64,000 nt of DNA, taken from NCBI RefSeq assembly GCF_988243305.1, contig NZ_OZ547136.1; one strand, given 5' to 3'. The first letter of the stretch is position 1. Every line of letters begins with the position of its first letter. Below, in pieces: positions 42,415 through 47,982 of the stretch. Made by a program: the position numbers and the translations under genes. Below the pieces are notes generated by a model. The model saw nothing but the letters and a program-made list of their open reading frames with translations, ran no database searches and was not told the origin of the DNA.

Positions 42415-43278
42415 ATGAGAATAACGATTGCATCAATAATTTTAATAATTAGCGCCACTGCAATAGGCGCCGAAGATACCCCTTCACATTTTGATATTCC
42501 CGAGCAAGTATTAAATAATATTACGAAGGAATCACGAAATAAACTGCAGGATATCATTGCCAAGGCTCAACATGGCGATAAAGCCTCACAAACGGTGATG
42601 GGACTCATATACCTGAATGGTCTATCTGAAAGTCCTTCAGTGAAGGATATAAACAAAGCATTTTATTGGCTCAACCTTGCAGCAAAGCAAAATTATGATG
42701 AAGCTGAATTTTACTTAGGACAGATTTATCATTACGGATATGATAATACGGGGCCTAACTATCGTATTGCGATATACTGGTATGAGAAAGCGGCAGAAAA
42801 AGGGAATGAACAAGCTCAAATAAACTGTGCGAATATTTATCAATTTGGCCCACAGGAATTCCAAAACATTAACAAAGCCAAGTATTGGCTTCAGAAAGCA
42901 GTACAGAAGGACAATCCTATTGCACATGCAAACTTAGGGATTATCGGAATTCAAGAGAATAAGTATGCTGAAGCTATCCCTCACTTAAAAATAGCGGCAG
43001 AAAAGGGTCAGCGACTCGGCCAATATAATTACGGGACACTTTTTTTTAATGGTCAGGGCGTTCCCAAAGATATACGACAGGCTAAATACTGGTTTGAGAA
43101 AGCTGCTACTCAAAACTTACCTATTGCACAAATTACTTTAGGACAAATTTATGCCTGGGGGCTTGATGAAAATGGCATAAATAAAGAAGAAGCGTTGCTC
43201 TGGTTAAATAAAGCCAAAGCCCAAGGTCAATTTACTGATAAACAGATCAACGCCATTATTTCAAAAAAAATAGACTAA
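42415..43278 (+). CDS. Secreted Sel1-like repeat (SLR/TPR-like) protein
   Basis: 287 aa with signal-peptide-like N-terminus MRITIASIILIISATAIGA and at least five Sel1 motifs (e.g. KAFYWLNLAAKQNYDEAEFYLGQIYHYG, IAIYWYEKAAEKGNEQAQINCANIYQFG, QAKYWFEKAATQNLPIAQITLGQIYAWG). Markedly AT-rich compared with the flanks. Confidence 0.8.
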   Translation: MRITIASIILIISATAIGAEDTPSHFDIPEQVLNNITKESRNKLQDIIAKAQHGDKASQTVMGLIYLNGLSESPSVKDINKAFYWLNLAAKQNYDEAEFYLGQIYHYGYDNTGPNYRIAIYWYEKAAEKGNEQAQINCANIYQFGPQEFQNINKAKYWLQKAVQKDNPIAHANLGIIGIQENKYAEAIPHLKIAAEKGQRLGQYNYGTLFFNGQGVPKDIRQAKYWFEKAATQNLPIAQITLGQIYAWGLDENGINKEEALLWLNKAKAQGQFTDKQINAIISKKID

Positions 43279-43290
43279 CTCCAAACCAAA

Positions 43291-43959
43291 ATGCTCAAAT
43301 CAATGCCATCTATTCGCTATCACAAAATAGAATCATTTAATTATCGCCATATATGGGCCGTTGGTGATATTCATGGCGATTATCAATTATTACAATCCCG
43401 CTTACACCAACTCTCTTTTTGCCCCTAAACTGACTTACTTATTTCCGTAGGCGATAATATTGATCGTGGGCCGGATAGTCTTAACGTGCTACGCCTGTTA
43501 AACCAGCCCTGGTTTACATCGGTTAAAGGCAACCACGAGGCAATGGCGCTTGATGCCTTCGCGACTGGCGATGGCAATATGTGGCTTGCCAGTGGCGGTG
43601 ACTGGTTCTTTGAGTTAAATGATTCAGAACAAAAAGAAGCAATAGACCTGTTGCTTCGCTTTCATCATCTTCCGCATATTATAGAAATCACTAACGATAT
43701 TATAAAATATGTTATCGCACATGCAGATTATCCGGGTGATGAATATCAGTTTGGCAAGGAAGTAGCGGAAAGAGAGGTACTCTGGCCTGTTGATCGCGTG
43801 CAGAAATCACTCAAAGGCGAGTTAAAAGAAATAAACGGTGCCGACTGTTTTATCTTCGGGCATATGATGTTTACAAATATCCAGACATTTGCCAATCAGG
43901 TTTATATTGATACCGGCTCGCCGGAAAGCGGGCGGTTATCGTTTTATAAAATAAAATGA
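43291..43959 (+). pseudogene. pphB: Ser/Thr protein phosphatase 2 (PP-lambda family), interrupted by in-frame TAA at about 43426-43428
   Basis: Frame reads MLKSMPSIRYHKIESFNYRHIWAVGDIHGDYQLLQSRLHQLSFCP-stop-TDLLISVGDNIDRGPDSLNVLRLLNQPWFTSVKGNHEAMA...; the stop lies between the GDxHG and GDxxDRG metallophosphatase motifs. Confidence 0.8.
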
Positions 43960-43963
43960 CAAG

Positions 43964-44002
43964 ACCGGGTAAGGCAAAGCCTCTACCCGGCACTTTTTTA
44001 TT
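43964..44002 (+). terminator. Hairpin (CCGGGTA ... TACCCGG) with T-tract, between convergent pphB and the decarboxylase operon
   Basis: Inverted repeat followed by CTTTTTTATT. Confidence 0.55.
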
Positions 44003-44237
44003 AACGCTTATCTGCCACCAGCAGTGGCGGAATGCTCGGCACCATTGGCGCGTCATCAATATCTTTCTGCGTCATGCGGAACGCTTCGGGATAATGTTCG
44101 CGGCTGGTGCGGCGCAGCGGTTCGGTATCGCGCCAGGTATAGAGGCAATGCTGGCACTGGTAGACCGTCCAGACATCTTTTACCGGCGATTTCGCCATCA
44201 CTTCAATCTGTTCATCAGCACAACGTGGACAAATCAT
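44001..44237 (-). CDS. Small subunit of UbiD-type non-oxidative hydroxyarylic acid decarboxylase (BsdD/VdcD-like)
   Basis: 78 aa MICPRCADEQIEVMAKSPVKDVWTVYQCQHCLYTWRDTEP with CxxC ... CxxC zinc-ribbon signature; resembles B. subtilis BsdD as I recall it. Confidence 0.8.
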   Translation of the reverse strand: MICPRCADEQIEVMAKSPVKDVWTVYQCQHCLYTWRDTEPLRRTSREHYPEAFRMTQKDIDDAPMVPSIPPLLVADKR

Positions 44238-44247
44238 CTTGTTCTCC

Positions 44248-45675
44248 TTATTGACGTGCGGCCAGCATAGCGGTCAGTTTTTCAGCCCAGGCTTTGGTTT
44301 CCGGTAAATCCACCACCGGCTGGCTGTAGTGACCACGGTTGTCCGGGGCGACAGGCGTGGTGGCGTCGATAATCAGCTTGTCGGTGATACCGGCCGGGCT
44401 TGAGCCGGGGTCGAGTTCCAGCACGGACATATTCGGCAACTGCACCAAATCCCCTGCCGGGTTCACTTTCGAAGAGAGCGCCCACATCACCTGCGGCAGG
44501 TTGAACGGATCAACGTCTTCATCGACCATAATCACCATCTTCACGTAGCCCAGACCGTGTGGCGTGGTCATCGCACGCAGGCCCACCGCGCGGGCAAAGC
44601 CACCGTAGCGTTTTTTGGTGGAGATAATCGCCAGCAGGCCGTGGGTGTACATGGCGTTCACCGCCTGCACTTCCGGGAACTCGGCTTTCAGTTGCTGATA
44701 CAGCGGCACGCAGGTGGCTGGCCCCATCAGGTAGTCGATTTCTGTCCACGGCATGCCGAGGTACAGCGATTCGAAAATCGGCCTGGTGCGGTAAGAGACT
44801 TTATCGATACGCACCACGGTCATGTTACGCCCGCCGGAGTAGTGCCCGGTAAACTCACCGAACGGCCCTTCGATTTCGCGTTTACGACTTTCGATGACCC
44901 CTTCGAGGATCACTTCTGAACCCCACGGCACATCAAAACCAGTCAGCGGGGCGGTGGCGATCGGGTACGGGCTTTCACGCAGCGCGCCTGCCATTTCGTA
45001 CTCGGACTGATCATATTTCAGCGGCGTGGCCCCCATCAGCGTGATGATCGGATCGTTACCCAAGGTGATGGCAATCGGCAGATCTTCACCGCGTTCTTCC
45101 GCTTTATGCAGATGCAGGGCGATATCGTGCATCGGCACCGGTTGCAGGCCGAGCTTACGTTTGCCCTTCACTTCCATACGATAGATACCGACGTTCTGCT
45201 TGCCGAAGTTATCCGGGTCGAGCGGATCGCGGGAAACCACGCACGCTTTGTCGAGATAGAAACCGCCATCGCCATCGTTTAAACGAAACAGCGGCAGGAT
45301 ATCGAACAGGTTGATCTCGTCGCCATCGACGGTGTTCTGCGCCCAGGCTGGATTGGCGCGGCGCTCCGGGGCAATCGGGAAGTTATCCCAGCGGCGGATA
45401 AACTCATCAATCTGCTTTTTGACCGGGGTGTTTGGCGGCAGGCCGAGGGAAATCGCGTGGTTCTGCCAGGAACCGATGGTATTCATCGCCACACGGGCAT
45501 CGGTAAAGCCGCGAATATTGTCAAACCACAGCGCGGGCGCGCCGTCGCCGATACGCCCGGTGGCGTTAGCTGCTGCTGCCAGATCCGGTTCCGCGTTCAC
45601 CTCTTCGCTGATTTTCAGTAACTGTCCGTGGTCATCAAGCGCCTGTAAAAAGCTGCGTAAATCATCAAATGCCAT
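44248..45675 (-). CDS. UbiD-family (prFMN-dependent) aromatic acid decarboxylase, BsdC/VdcC-like
   Basis: 475 aa with the full-length UbiD fold; sits in operon between the UbiX-like and small-subunit genes. Confidence 0.85.
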   Translation of the reverse strand: MAFDDLRSFLQALDDHGQLLKISEEVNAEPDLAAAANATGRIGDGAPALWFDNIRGFTDARVAMNTIGSWQNHAISLGLPPNTPVKKQIDEFIRRWDNFPIAPERRANPAWAQNTVDGDEINLFDILPLFRLNDGDGGFYLDKACVVSRDPLDPDNFGKQNVGIYRMEVKGKRKLGLQPVPMHDIALHLHKAEERGEDLPIAITLGNDPIITLMGATPLKYDQSEYEMAGALRESPYPIATAPLTGFDVPWGSEVILEGVIESRKREIEGPFGEFTGHYSGGRNMTVVRIDKVSYRTRPIFESLYLGMPWTEIDYLMGPATCVPLYQQLKAEFPEVQAVNAMYTHGLLAIISTKKRYGGFARAVGLRAMTTPHGLGYVKMVIMVDEDVDPFNLPQVMWALSSKVNPAGDLVQLPNMSVLELDPGSSPAGITDKLIIDATTPVAPDNRGHYSQPVVDLPETKAWAEKLTAMLAARQ

Positions 45676-46267
45676 TATTCATTCTCCTGAGAAAAATTCC
45701 GGACCTGCGGCAATCCTTGCCAGCGCCTGGCGTGGGATGTTCGAGGCCAAATTGATCCAGCACGCGGGCTACCACGTGGTGGACAATGTCATCTACCGTT
45801 TCGGGATGGTTATAAAAGGCAGGCATCGGCGGCACCATCGCCACGCCCATGCGTGAAAGTGCGAGCATATTTTCGAGATGGATGGTGCTAAGCGGCATTT
45901 CACGCGGCACCAGCACTAGTTTGCGGCCTTCTTTGAGCACGACGTCCGCCGCGCGCCCTACCAGGCCATCGGCGTAACCGACACGGATACCGGCGAGCGT
46001 TTTCATACTGCACGGAATAACGATCATGCCGTCGGTACGAAAGGAACCTGAGGAGATGGTCGCCGCCTGATCCGCCGGGTTATGACTGAAGTCTGCGAGG
46101 GCAGCAACATCGCGAGCGCTGTAAGGCGTTTCCAGTTCAATGGTGGTTTTCGCCCACTTCGACATCACCAGATGAGTCTCGACATTCGGCATCTCCCGCA
46201 GCGCTTGCAGTAATGCCACCCCAAGAGGCGCACCGGTAGCCCCTGTCATCCCGACGATCAGTCTCAT
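45665..46267 (-). CDS. UbiX/Pad1-family flavin prenyltransferase (BsdB/VdcB-like)
   Basis: 200 aa MRLIVGMTGATGAPLGVALLQAL ... typical UbiX N-terminus; overlaps the start of the UbiD-like gene. Confidence 0.85.
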   Translation of the reverse strand: MRLIVGMTGATGAPLGVALLQALREMPNVETHLVMSKWAKTTIELETPYSARDVAALADFSHNPADQAATISSGSFRTDGMIVIPCSMKTLAGIRVGYADGLVGRAADVVLKEGRKLVLVPREMPLSTIHLENMLALSRMGVAMVPPMPAFYNHPETVDDIVHHVVARVLDQFGLEHPTPGAGKDCRRSGIFLRRMNNGI

Positions 46268-46283
46268 TGTTTATTCTCTTAAT

Positions 46284-46390
46284 TGTTCGTATACGAACGT
46301 TATTATTAAAATACGCCTCTGTTTTCATCGCGGCAAGCACTGAAAAGTAACAACATCTTCTTCGTCACTGAAAAACCGCTATGATAGCGG
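46284..46390 (+). promoter_or_regulatory. Divergent promoter region with two palindromes (GTTCGTATACGAAC and CCGCTATGATAGCGG), candidate MarR operators
   Basis: Perfect 14-bp palindrome and a 15-bp palindrome between the decarboxylase operon and the MarR gene. Confidence 0.5.
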
Positions 46391-46821
46391 CAGATAGTTT
46401 GCCCGGAGTTTACATGGCGTTACGAAATAAAGCGTTCCATCAGTTACGACAGCTTTTTCAGCAGCACACGGCTCGCTGGCAGCACGAGTTACCTGACCTC
46501 ACCAAACCACAGTACGCGGTGATGCGCGCCATTGCTGATAAGCCTGGTATCGAACAGGTGGCACTGATAGAAGCAGCAGTCAGCACCAAAGCAACGCTGG
46601 CAGAAATGTTGGCAAGAATGGAAAATCGTGGCTTAGTCAGACGTGAACATGACGCCGCTGACAAGCGGCGTCGCTTTGTCTGGCTGACTGCCGAAGGAGA
46701 AAAGGTACTTGCTGCGGCGATCCCCATTGGTGACAGTGTGGATGAGGAATTTTTGGGGCGTTTGAGTGCAGAAGAGAAGGAGCTGTTTATGCAGTTGGTG
46801 CGCAAGATGATGAGCAAATAG
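46381..46821 (+). CDS. MarR/SlyA-family transcriptional regulator
   Basis: 146 aa with winged-HTH core (QYAVMRAIADKPGIEQVALIEAAVSTKATLAEMLARMENRGLVRREHDAADKRRRFVWLT); divergent from the decarboxylase operon. True start may be Met12. Confidence 0.8.
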   Translation: MIAADSLPGVYMALRNKAFHQLRQLFQQHTARWQHELPDLTKPQYAVMRAIADKPGIEQVALIEAAVSTKATLAEMLARMENRGLVRREHDAADKRRRFVWLTAEGEKVLAAAIPIGDSVDEEFLGRLSAEEKELFMQLVRKMMSK

Positions 46822-46941
46822 GATGCTGATTGCCGGGTAGGACGCTGACGAGTCTTATCCAGGCGACAAAACACACCGACTTCCCAAACAAAAGAAAAAG
46901 GCCAGCCTCGCTTGAGACTGGCCTTTCTGACAGATGCTTAC

Positions 46942-47920
46942 TTACTCGCGGAACAGCGCTTCGATATTCAGCCCCTGCGTTTGCAGGATTTCGCGCAAAC
47001 GGCGCAGGCCTTCAACCTGAATCTGGCGAACACGTTCACGGGTGAGGCCAATTTCACGACCTACATCTTCCAGTGTTGCCGCTTCGTACCCCAGCAAACC
47101 GAATCGACGTGCCAGTACTTCACGCTGTTTGGCGTTCAGCTCGAACAGCCATTTGACGATGCTCTGCTTCATATCGTCATCTTGCGTGGTATCTTCCGGA
47201 CCGTTCTCTTTTTCATCGGCCAGGATGTCCAGCAACGCTTTTTCGGAATCACCACCCAGCGGGGTGTCTACCGAGGTAATGCGCTCGTTAAGACGAAGCA
47301 TACGGCTGACGTCATCAACTGGCTTATCCAGTTGCTCTGCGATCTCTTCCGCACTTGGTTCGTGGTCCAGTTTATGGGACAACTCGCGTGCGGTTCGCAG
47401 GTAAACGTTCAGCTCCTTTACGATGTGAATCGGCAAACGAATAGTACGGGTTTGGTTCATAATCGCCCGTTCGATCGTCTGGCGAATCCACCAGGAAGCG
47501 GAAACCACGTTCCGGGTCAAACTTCTCTACCGCGCGGATCAGCCCCAGGTTGCCCTCTTCGATCAGGTCCAGCAACGCCAGACCACGATTGCCATAACGG
47601 CGGGCAATTTTTACCACCAGACGCAAGTTACTCTCGATCATCCGGCGGCGGGAGGCAACATCTCCACGCAGTGCGCGACGCGCAAAATAAACTTCTTCTT
47701 CGGCCGTTAACAGTGGTGAATAACCAATCTCACCAAGGTAAAGCTGAGTCGCGTCCAACACACGCTGTGTGGCTCCCTGCGATAACAGTTCCTCTTCGGC
47801 CAAATCGTTATCACTGGGTTCCTCTTCTACTAAGGCCTTTTCGTCAAAAACCTCAACTCCGTTCTCATCAAATTCCGCATCTTCATTTAAATCATGAACT
47901 TTCAGCGTATTCTGACTCAT
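46942..47920 (-). pseudogene. rpoS: RNA polymerase sigma factor RpoS (sigma-38) disrupted by an internal deletion/frameshift of about 14 bp
   Basis: Two overlapping minus-strand ORFs in different frames: 47372..47956 encodes RpoS from [11 protein letters not shown] to [11 protein letters not shown] then runs out of frame; 46942..47520 encodes [14 protein letters not shown] ... LFRE. The junction reads CGCTTC|CTGGTGGATT and residues STYAT are missing. Span is 979 bp against the 993 bp expected. Confidence 0.85.
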
Positions 47921-47982
47921 AAGGTGGCTCCTACCCGTGATCCCTTGACGGAACATTCAAGCAAAAGCCTGGTTCCGCCGAT

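Follow-up and report, generated by a model that had tools for sequence, protein, structure and literature searches.

The divergent hosA-decarboxylase control region of Escherichia coli: a known HosA operator and a second palindrome that probably holds a hosA-proximal −10 element

In the stretch of DNA that was analysed here (the window, 64,000 nucleotides), a gene for a regulator of the MarR family is transcribed divergently from a decarboxylase operon, and two short palindromes, called P1 and P2 in the following, lie between the two start codons. A sequence-only reading of the window had put both forward as operators of the MarR protein. The question raised by the locus is what each of the two palindromes does. 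As will be discussed below, the region as a whole is probably an already known divergent control region governed by the regulator HosA, in which P1 is the operator and the core of P2 is a second −10 element, proximal to the hosA gene.

The locus and its two palindromes

Positions 45900-46900 of the window were found to be 100% identical to E. coli NZ_CP033884, in the annotation of which a MarR family regulator and the subunits B, C and D of the decarboxylase (HAD) have the genes rpoS-nlpD-pcm-surE as neighbours. Since the match sits beside these genes, the window can be placed in the mutS-rpoS polymorphic island of E. coli. The hosA/HAD locus is carried by 2404 of the 5426 complete genomes of this species. 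The MarR protein is identified as HosA by its match to PDB entry 8aga ('Transcriptional regulator HosA', E = 2.5e-83), and its Klebsiella orthologues carry this name in their source records. The gene context that had been read from the sequence, namely a MarR gene divergent from a decarboxylase operon with a phenolic acid as the effector, is borne out, the operon being of the UbiX/UbiD type. The coordinates of the features are collected in Table 1.

Table 1. Genes, palindromes and predicted promoter elements of the region, in window coordinates.
Feature	Position	Strand	Basis
Decarboxylase subunit D (78 aa)	44001-44237	−	RefSeq annotation, identical locus
Decarboxylase subunit C (UbiD family)	44248-45675	−	Pfam UbiD, UbiD_N, UbiD_C; RefSeq annotation
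Decarboxylase subunit B (UbiX-like flavin prenyltransferase), operon gene 1	45665-46267	−	Pfam Flavoprotein, E = 2e-44; RefSeq 'non-oxidative hydroxyarylic acid decarboxylases subunit B'
Predicted distal hosA promoter, TTGTTC (46283-46288)-18-TAAAAT (46307-46312)	46283-46312	+	Top plus-strand candidate in the window, score 11.4 vs background 90th percentile 9.1 (approximate PWM)
P1, HosA operator (O1), GTTCGTATACGAAC, perfect 14-bp palindrome	46285-46298		Matches published HosA oligos; conserved
Predicted −10 of the decarboxylase operon promoter, TATTTT	46308-46313	−	Best minus-strand candidate, TTGCCG-17-TATTTT; conserved architecture
Predicted −35 of the decarboxylase operon promoter, TTGCCG	46331-46336	−	Same candidate; conserved architecture
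P2, CCGCTATGATAGCGG, perfect palindrome, 7-bp arms around a central G (7+1+7)	46376-46390		Sequence
TATGAT, −10-like hexamer in the P2 core (predicted hosA-proximal promoter)	46380-46385	+	TA[T/A]NAT in 80/81 sequences
hosA (MarR family, 135 aa)	46414-46821	+	Pfam MarR; PDB 8aga; RefSeq CDS start

The intergenic region measures 146 bp (46268-46413) and extends from the ATG of subunit B (46267, minus strand) to the ATG of hosA (46414, plus strand). The latter start codon is used in all nine RefSeq records that were inspected, and the Shine-Dalgarno sequence GGAG at 46405-46408 is conserved. There is also an in-frame ATG at 46381-46383, in the centre of P2, so that an ORF called mechanically would encode 146 aa. 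This codon was ruled out as the true start of hosA, because RefSeq and all orthologues begin at the M-(A/E)-L-R-N codon at 46414 with its conserved GGAG, and because orthologues having TATCAT at the corresponding place have no ATG there.

A few features of the surroundings can be mentioned here. The homology to NZ_CP033884 stops at 43996, and the ygbN and ygbM genes of that genome are replaced in the window by a Sel1-repeat ORF (42415-43278) and a short metallophosphatase-like ORF (43486-43959); with this segment (42415-43995), the mosaic mutS-rpoS region appears in yet another form. Compared to NZ_CP033884, which has GTTGCGTATGTTGA at this place, rpoS (minus strand, 46942-47934) has a 14-bp deletion at ca 47495 that shifts the frame and leaves two overlapping ORFs (46942-47520 and 47372-47956), and the rpoS of the window is by its sequence an apparent null allele. 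In the gene of subunit B, one base is missing from a G-run at ca 45734 relative to the same genome. The protein then has 200 aa, of which the last ca 22 differ, and its gene overlaps that of subunit C by 11 nt. Both frames of this tail occur in nature, since the whole of the alternative tail can be aligned with the B proteins of Enterobacter, Lelliottia and Leclercia. Finally, a strong 15-pair hairpin followed by a T-run is located between the convergent hosA and rpoS genes, at 46895-46928; it is likely the terminator of rpoS, and possibly serves both genes.

Turning to the palindromes themselves, both are indeed present and perfect, P1 being located at 46285-46298, one base away from the 46284-46297 assigned to it earlier. 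Perfect palindromes whose 7-bp arms are separated by 0-1 nt number nine in the 64-kb window, compared to 7.8 expected by chance (4^-7 per position), and a single palindrome of this kind is therefore unremarkable. To have two of them inside 146 bp is unusual, the P value from 20,000 shuffles of the region being 0.0002 for two or more palindromes and 0.023 for one or more. P1 is clearly non-random, because it is kept in all 80 orthologous loci described below. The palindromic look of P2, of which only the core is conserved, is in part lineage-specific and could be a coincidence. A repeat search (seed 6, minimum length 8) listed neither palindrome, the arms being 7 nt long, and returned weak repeats only; one of these, CACTGAAAA, which is present twice in the region, is not conserved among the Escherichia alleles. 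Full-text literature searches with either palindrome sequence matched no paper, and P1 was met solely in a supplementary table.

The HosA operator and the promoters around it

P1 is the operator of HosA, and as such it is already known and not a new candidate. In a study from 2018 (Sci Adv, PMC6261655), DNA with the "14-bp TFBS of HosA" was used, and it was shown by EMSA that 4-hydroxybenzoate (4-HBA) dissociates HosA from it. The binding of HosA to DNA was measured there by BLI, and the affinity for 4-HBA was determined by ITC to be 4.7 uM. The T_H oligo of that study contains TTAATTGTTCGTATACGAACGTTATTA, which is identical to positions 46279-46305 of the window. In the F0 oligo, the left flank agrees exactly with the window when the latter is read as its reverse complement, and the right flank is the same as the window save for one A beside the start codon of subunit B, a difference between the published UMN026 oligo and the strain of the window. 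In the same study, Roy & Ranjan 2016 (Biochemistry 55:1120) is cited as the source of the site. As the content of that work is summarised in two preprints, HosA represses both the HAD operon and itself, 4-HBA relieves this repression, and the palindromic site is located downstream of the transcription start of the operon, with repression by steric block. In addition, a 2026 paper reports that a circuit built with the HosA of O157:H7 gives a specific 38-fold response to 4-HB in vivo. The identity of P1, the binding of HosA and the response to 4-HBA are all published, the switch and its operator having been characterised in 2016. For P1, the proposal of a MarR operator has thus turned out to be correct, as this palindrome is the published 14-bp HosA site.

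The conservation of the site was examined in 80 loci, which were fetched from one-genome-per-species contigs by means of an alignment of HosA orthologues. They represent more than 20 genera, including Escherichia, Citrobacter, Salmonella, Klebsiella, Enterobacter, Kluyvera, Kosakonia, Leclercia, Lelliottia, Atlantibacter and Rahnella. hosA and the HAD genes diverge in every one of them, the neighbour of hosA being subunit B or, in loci without B, subunit C, and the sequence GTTCG-N4-CGAAC is always present, mostly 16-20 nt from the ATG of subunit B. The arms of this HosA box have no mismatch in 75 of the loci and one mismatch in the remaining five, which belong to the Rahnella clade (CGAAT), and the central 4 nt are variable (TATA, TACA, TGTA, CATA, TATG). 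P1 is the sole zero-mismatch HosA box in the 64-kb window.

On the operon strand, the great majority of the 81 sequences have a promoter-like TTGnnn-17-TAnnnT located 9-10 nt upstream of the HosA box. The corresponding candidate in the window (Table 1) is predicted to have its start at ca 46301, which would put P1 at about +3 to +17, in agreement with the published statement that the site is downstream of the start. The position of the operon promoter and its start site are what we infer from this conserved arrangement.

For the scoring of promoters, we have used a sigma-70 PWM with approximate frequencies, and the scores given here and below are only indicative. As a background, the best score was taken for each 200 nt of the window, which gave 6.3 as the median and 9.1 as the 90th percentile. 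The plus-strand candidate with the highest score, the predicted distal hosA promoter of Table 1, lies partly over P1 and has its −10 region in common with the operon promoter, and 18 bp separate the two predicted starts (ca 46319 and ca 46301). With P1 lying over the −35 element and the spacer of this candidate, the reported autorepression from a single site would be explained. The distal promoter, the start sites and the role discussed below for TATGAT in E. coli are all inferred from sequence.

In the mechanism suggested by these observations, a HosA dimer bound to GTTCG-N4-CGAAC, which covers roughly +3 to +17 relative to the predicted start of the operon, would block RNA polymerase, and 4-hydroxybenzoate would release HosA so that the decarboxylase can be expressed. 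The one operator P1 would act as a repressor site in both directions by virtue of its overlap with the distal hosA promoter.

In 36 of the 81 loci, a second HosA-like box, GTTCGYRYACGATC (with 1-2 arm mismatches), was observed at a distance of 56-57 bp from the first one. It abuts the −35 element of the operon and is located about 74-90 nt into the intergenic region. The genera in question include Klebsiella, Enterobacter, Kluyvera, Lelliottia, Leclercia and Pseudocitrobacter. Among the 81 loci compared, this second box is absent in Escherichia, Citrobacter, Salmonella and Kosakonia, and the window has no counterpart of it at 46341-46354.

The second palindrome

We now consider P2, for which the proposal of a MarR operator did not stand: it has no half-sites, its symmetry is not conserved, and its core resembles a sigma-70 −10 element. 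On this reading, autoregulation would come from a second HosA dimer that binds P2 and covers the −10 of hosA, and the site would be vacated upon binding of a phenolic acid to the regulator. P2 is indeed perfect, has a size typical of operators, overlaps a −10-like hexamer and is situated 24 nt upstream of hosA. Furthermore, autorepression of hosA is reported, in the summaries cited above, and the shuffle value of P = 0.0002 makes two perfect palindromes within 146 bp unlikely by chance. However, neither GTTCG nor CGAAC occurs in CCGCTATGATAGCGG, whereas the HosA box has exactly these arms in 75 of 80 loci and deviates from them by one base in the others. A scan of the 64-kb window for the HosA box with up to one mismatch gave P1 and three chance-level matches, none of them at P2. 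Moreover, those genera that have a second HosA-like site have it as a clear copy of the box (GTTCGYRYACGATC) and at another place than P2, and the literature describes a single palindromic site.

The symmetry of P2 is, in addition, absent outside Escherichia and broken in most E. coli. Outside Escherichia, the outer pairs are complementary in 33 of 74 loci for positions 1-15, in 13 of 74 for positions 2-14 and in 5 of 74 for positions 3-13. When the inner flanks of the palindrome change (CTAT to TTAT; ATAG to ATGG or ATAA), the partner base mostly does not follow. A role of P2 as a MarR/HosA operator is not supported by these comparisons, and we consider a second HosA site at this position to be highly unlikely. 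As a caution, P2 should not be annotated as a MarR operator.

A different pattern emerges when the core of P2 is considered. For this comparison, 81 sequences were anchored on the hexamer in the P2 centre and inspected as 15-mers. The hexamer, which is TA[T/A]NAT in all sequences except one, lies in most of them 33-36 nt before the ATG of hosA, the distance from its first base being mostly 34-35 nt. Positions 1, 2, 5 and 6 (T, A, A and T) are invariant, position 3 is T in 73 cases and A in 7, and G and C are equally frequent at the centre of P2, with 38 loci each. The G located two bases upstream of the hexamer, which would be G−14 of a promoter, is found in 78 of 80 loci, and the base that is its partner in the palindrome is the symmetric C in only 11 of 80. 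In the window, this G is at 46378 and the predicted start at ca 46392. Because only the hexamer and G−14 are conserved, and the partners in the flanks are not, P2 looks like a sigma-70 −10 element and not like a dyad operator. It is most likely, judging from the conservation pattern, that P2 marks the hosA-proximal −10 element and that its symmetry is coincidental and lineage-restricted.

Most loci outside Escherichia also have a conserved GTTAAAA block, which sets TTAAAA (or TTATAA, TTGTTC) exactly 17 nt upstream of TATSAT. This block is likely the −35 element of hosA. In 60 of 80 loci, no plus-strand candidate scores higher than the proximal pair TTAAAA-17-TATSAT, for which the approximate PWM gives a median score of 11.4 outside Escherichia and 6.5 within. 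In the window and in all Escherichia, the −35 match of TATGAT is 2/6, and the Escherichia scores range from 5.3 to 7.2, the value for the window (7.2) being slightly above the background median of 6.3. Since there is no usable −35 and the score is near the background, TATGAT may in E. coli be a weak promoter or a relic. A stock promoter scan of 46150-46550 returned nothing, its threshold of 9/12 being too strict for these promoters. In the searchable literature, no transcription-start data for hosA were found, the only matches being unrelated papers.

The corresponding scenario is that G-N-TATGAT would be the −10 of a second, hosA-proximal promoter, with TTAAAA as its −35 partner at 17 nt in most other genera, and that a deletion of ca 25 bp would have taken away the proximal −35 in Escherichia. 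The palindrome would have come about because TATGATA is partly self-complementary, with the lineage-specific flanks CCGC...GCGG completing it in about 40% of the E. coli carriers.

The variation within Escherichia was followed in an alignment of 14 alleles, comprising nine from E. coli (including the window), four from other Escherichia species and one from a metagenome assembly labelled Citrobacter, the HosA of which is 99% identical to that of the window. The left arm of P2 and TATGAT are invariant across these alleles. All changes are confined to the right outer arm (GCGG, GCGA, GCCA, or ATCGG for AGCGG), and none of them is compensated. In an exact-word search of complete E. coli genomes, the perfect form of P2 was found in 982 and the form ending in ...GCGA in 1278, which makes the perfect 15-bp palindrome a minority allele. 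Nearly all Escherichia alleles retain a 13-bp palindrome, CGCTATGATAGCG, which may have a function specific to this genus. As the alleles are 93-100% identical, its conservation cannot separate selection from ancestry.

One such function would be that of a binding site for another dimeric regulator, which would control hosA in Escherichia. This is consistent with the near invariance of CGCTATGATAGCG within a conserved block at 46341-46389, and with its overlap with the −10-like hexamer, a typical position for a repressor. Recent common ancestry explains the conservation in Escherichia equally well, however, and no candidate regulator is known. The motif has two matches in the window at up to two mismatches compared to 2.7 expected, and the P2 sequence was not found in the searched literature. 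To our knowledge, P2 has no convincing similarity to sites of the Fur, CRP or LacI type. Control by another regulator at P2 appears on this evidence quite improbable.

Another option is that P2 acts at the level of RNA, as an Escherichia-specific hairpin. It could be a weak minus-strand terminator (CCGCUAUCAUAGCGG followed by UUUUU) that halts antisense or read-through transcription before the operon, or a stem-loop in a long hosA leader starting from the distal promoter. A terminator scan gave, on the minus strand at 46391-46375, a stem of 7 pairs (4 G-C) with a 3-nt loop, followed by TTTTT. The predicted folding energy is −9.1 kcal/mol for the minus-strand RNA (z = −2.1), which is marginal for a terminator, and −7.7 kcal/mol for the plus-strand RNA (z = −3.7). 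The A-run beside P2, made by the deletion, is found only in Escherichia. On the minus strand, the GCGA allele has a U-G closing pair and a U-run extended to 6. On the other hand, the stem is short and weak, and the GCGA allele is predicted to fold differently. No compensatory change was seen, and the E1V33 and GPEC403 alleles break the stem. Furthermore, rpoS already has its strong 15-pair terminator (46928-46895), Rfam gave no meaningful match at E values up to 1, and both the stem and the A/T-run are absent from other genera. We regard a functional hairpin at P2 as unlikely.

The difference between Escherichia and the other genera can also be viewed from the side of the intergenic length. 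This is 145-147 bp in Escherichia, ca 25 bp shorter than in most other genera (ca 157-174 bp), and the gap, which falls at 46363-46375 of the window in the alignment, removes the conserved GTTAAAA block located 17 nt upstream of TATSAT. One can speculate that this deletion has rewired the control of hosA. The ancestral TTAAAA-17-TATSAT promoter would have been disabled, leaving hosA to be transcribed solely from the HosA-controlled bidirectional promoter at P1, and the A-run made by the deletion would, together with two substitutions in the flanks, have created the P2 hairpin, with a possible role in the long leader of hosA or, as a terminator on the minus strand, in shielding the operon. Taken as a whole, this scenario is tentative and in our view rather doubtful. 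If true, it would mean that HosA has changed from an independently expressed regulator to a strictly autoregulated one. The reading that we prefer for P2 is still that of a −10 element of a hosA-proximal promoter with a fortuitous symmetry.

Significance and relation to known systems

It should be pointed out that little in the switch itself is new, as HosA, 4-hydroxybenzoate and the HAD operon are known to form it, and the operator has already been employed in several biosensors. The gain is a family-wide picture of the control region, consisting of a conserved operon promoter, the operator and a promoter proximal to hosA. The differences between lineages, namely the second box in Klebsiella, Enterobacter and their relatives and a hosA promoter that has lost its −35 in Escherichia, could be of interest both to those who engineer HosA sensors and to those who study the evolution of regulation.

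When compared to a sigma-70 −10 element with G−14 (a partial extended −10), the core of P2, G-C-TATGAT, shares the invariant T−12, A−11, A−8 and T−7. It is also found at a fixed distance from the hosA start codon and has, in most genera, a TTAAAA at a spacing of 17 nt. It differs from the extended −10 in that the P2 core of the window lacks the T at −15 and has no recognisable −35.

Bidirectional promoters reportedly have overlapping −10 elements and starts that are 18 bp apart. The predicted elements of the window would fit this description, with TATTTT (46313-46308) and TAAAAT (46307-46312) overlapping and the predicted starts at 46301 and 46319, likewise 18 bp apart. This likeness is a prediction only, and the first T of the plus-strand hexamer is present in most, not all, genera.

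Among the MarR regulators that control a divergent pair of transcription units from one operator, PcaV and HucR can be taken for comparison. Among PDB entries, PcaV is the next-best relative (E = 7.6e-16), and HucR was used beside HosA in the biosensor paper (PMC6261655). The winged-helix dimer, the short palindrome, the steric block and the release by an aromatic ligand are common to these systems. The GTTCG-N4-CGAAC box and its placement downstream of the start of the target promoter are, in contrast, specific to the HosA system.

The closest comparison is with the HosA operator of pathogenic E. coli (Roy & Ranjan 2016), with which P1 shares the same 14-bp sequence, the position upstream of subunit B, the regulator and the effector. 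Relative to the published operator, in the form of the UMN026 oligo, nothing material differs, the window deviating by one A in the flank.
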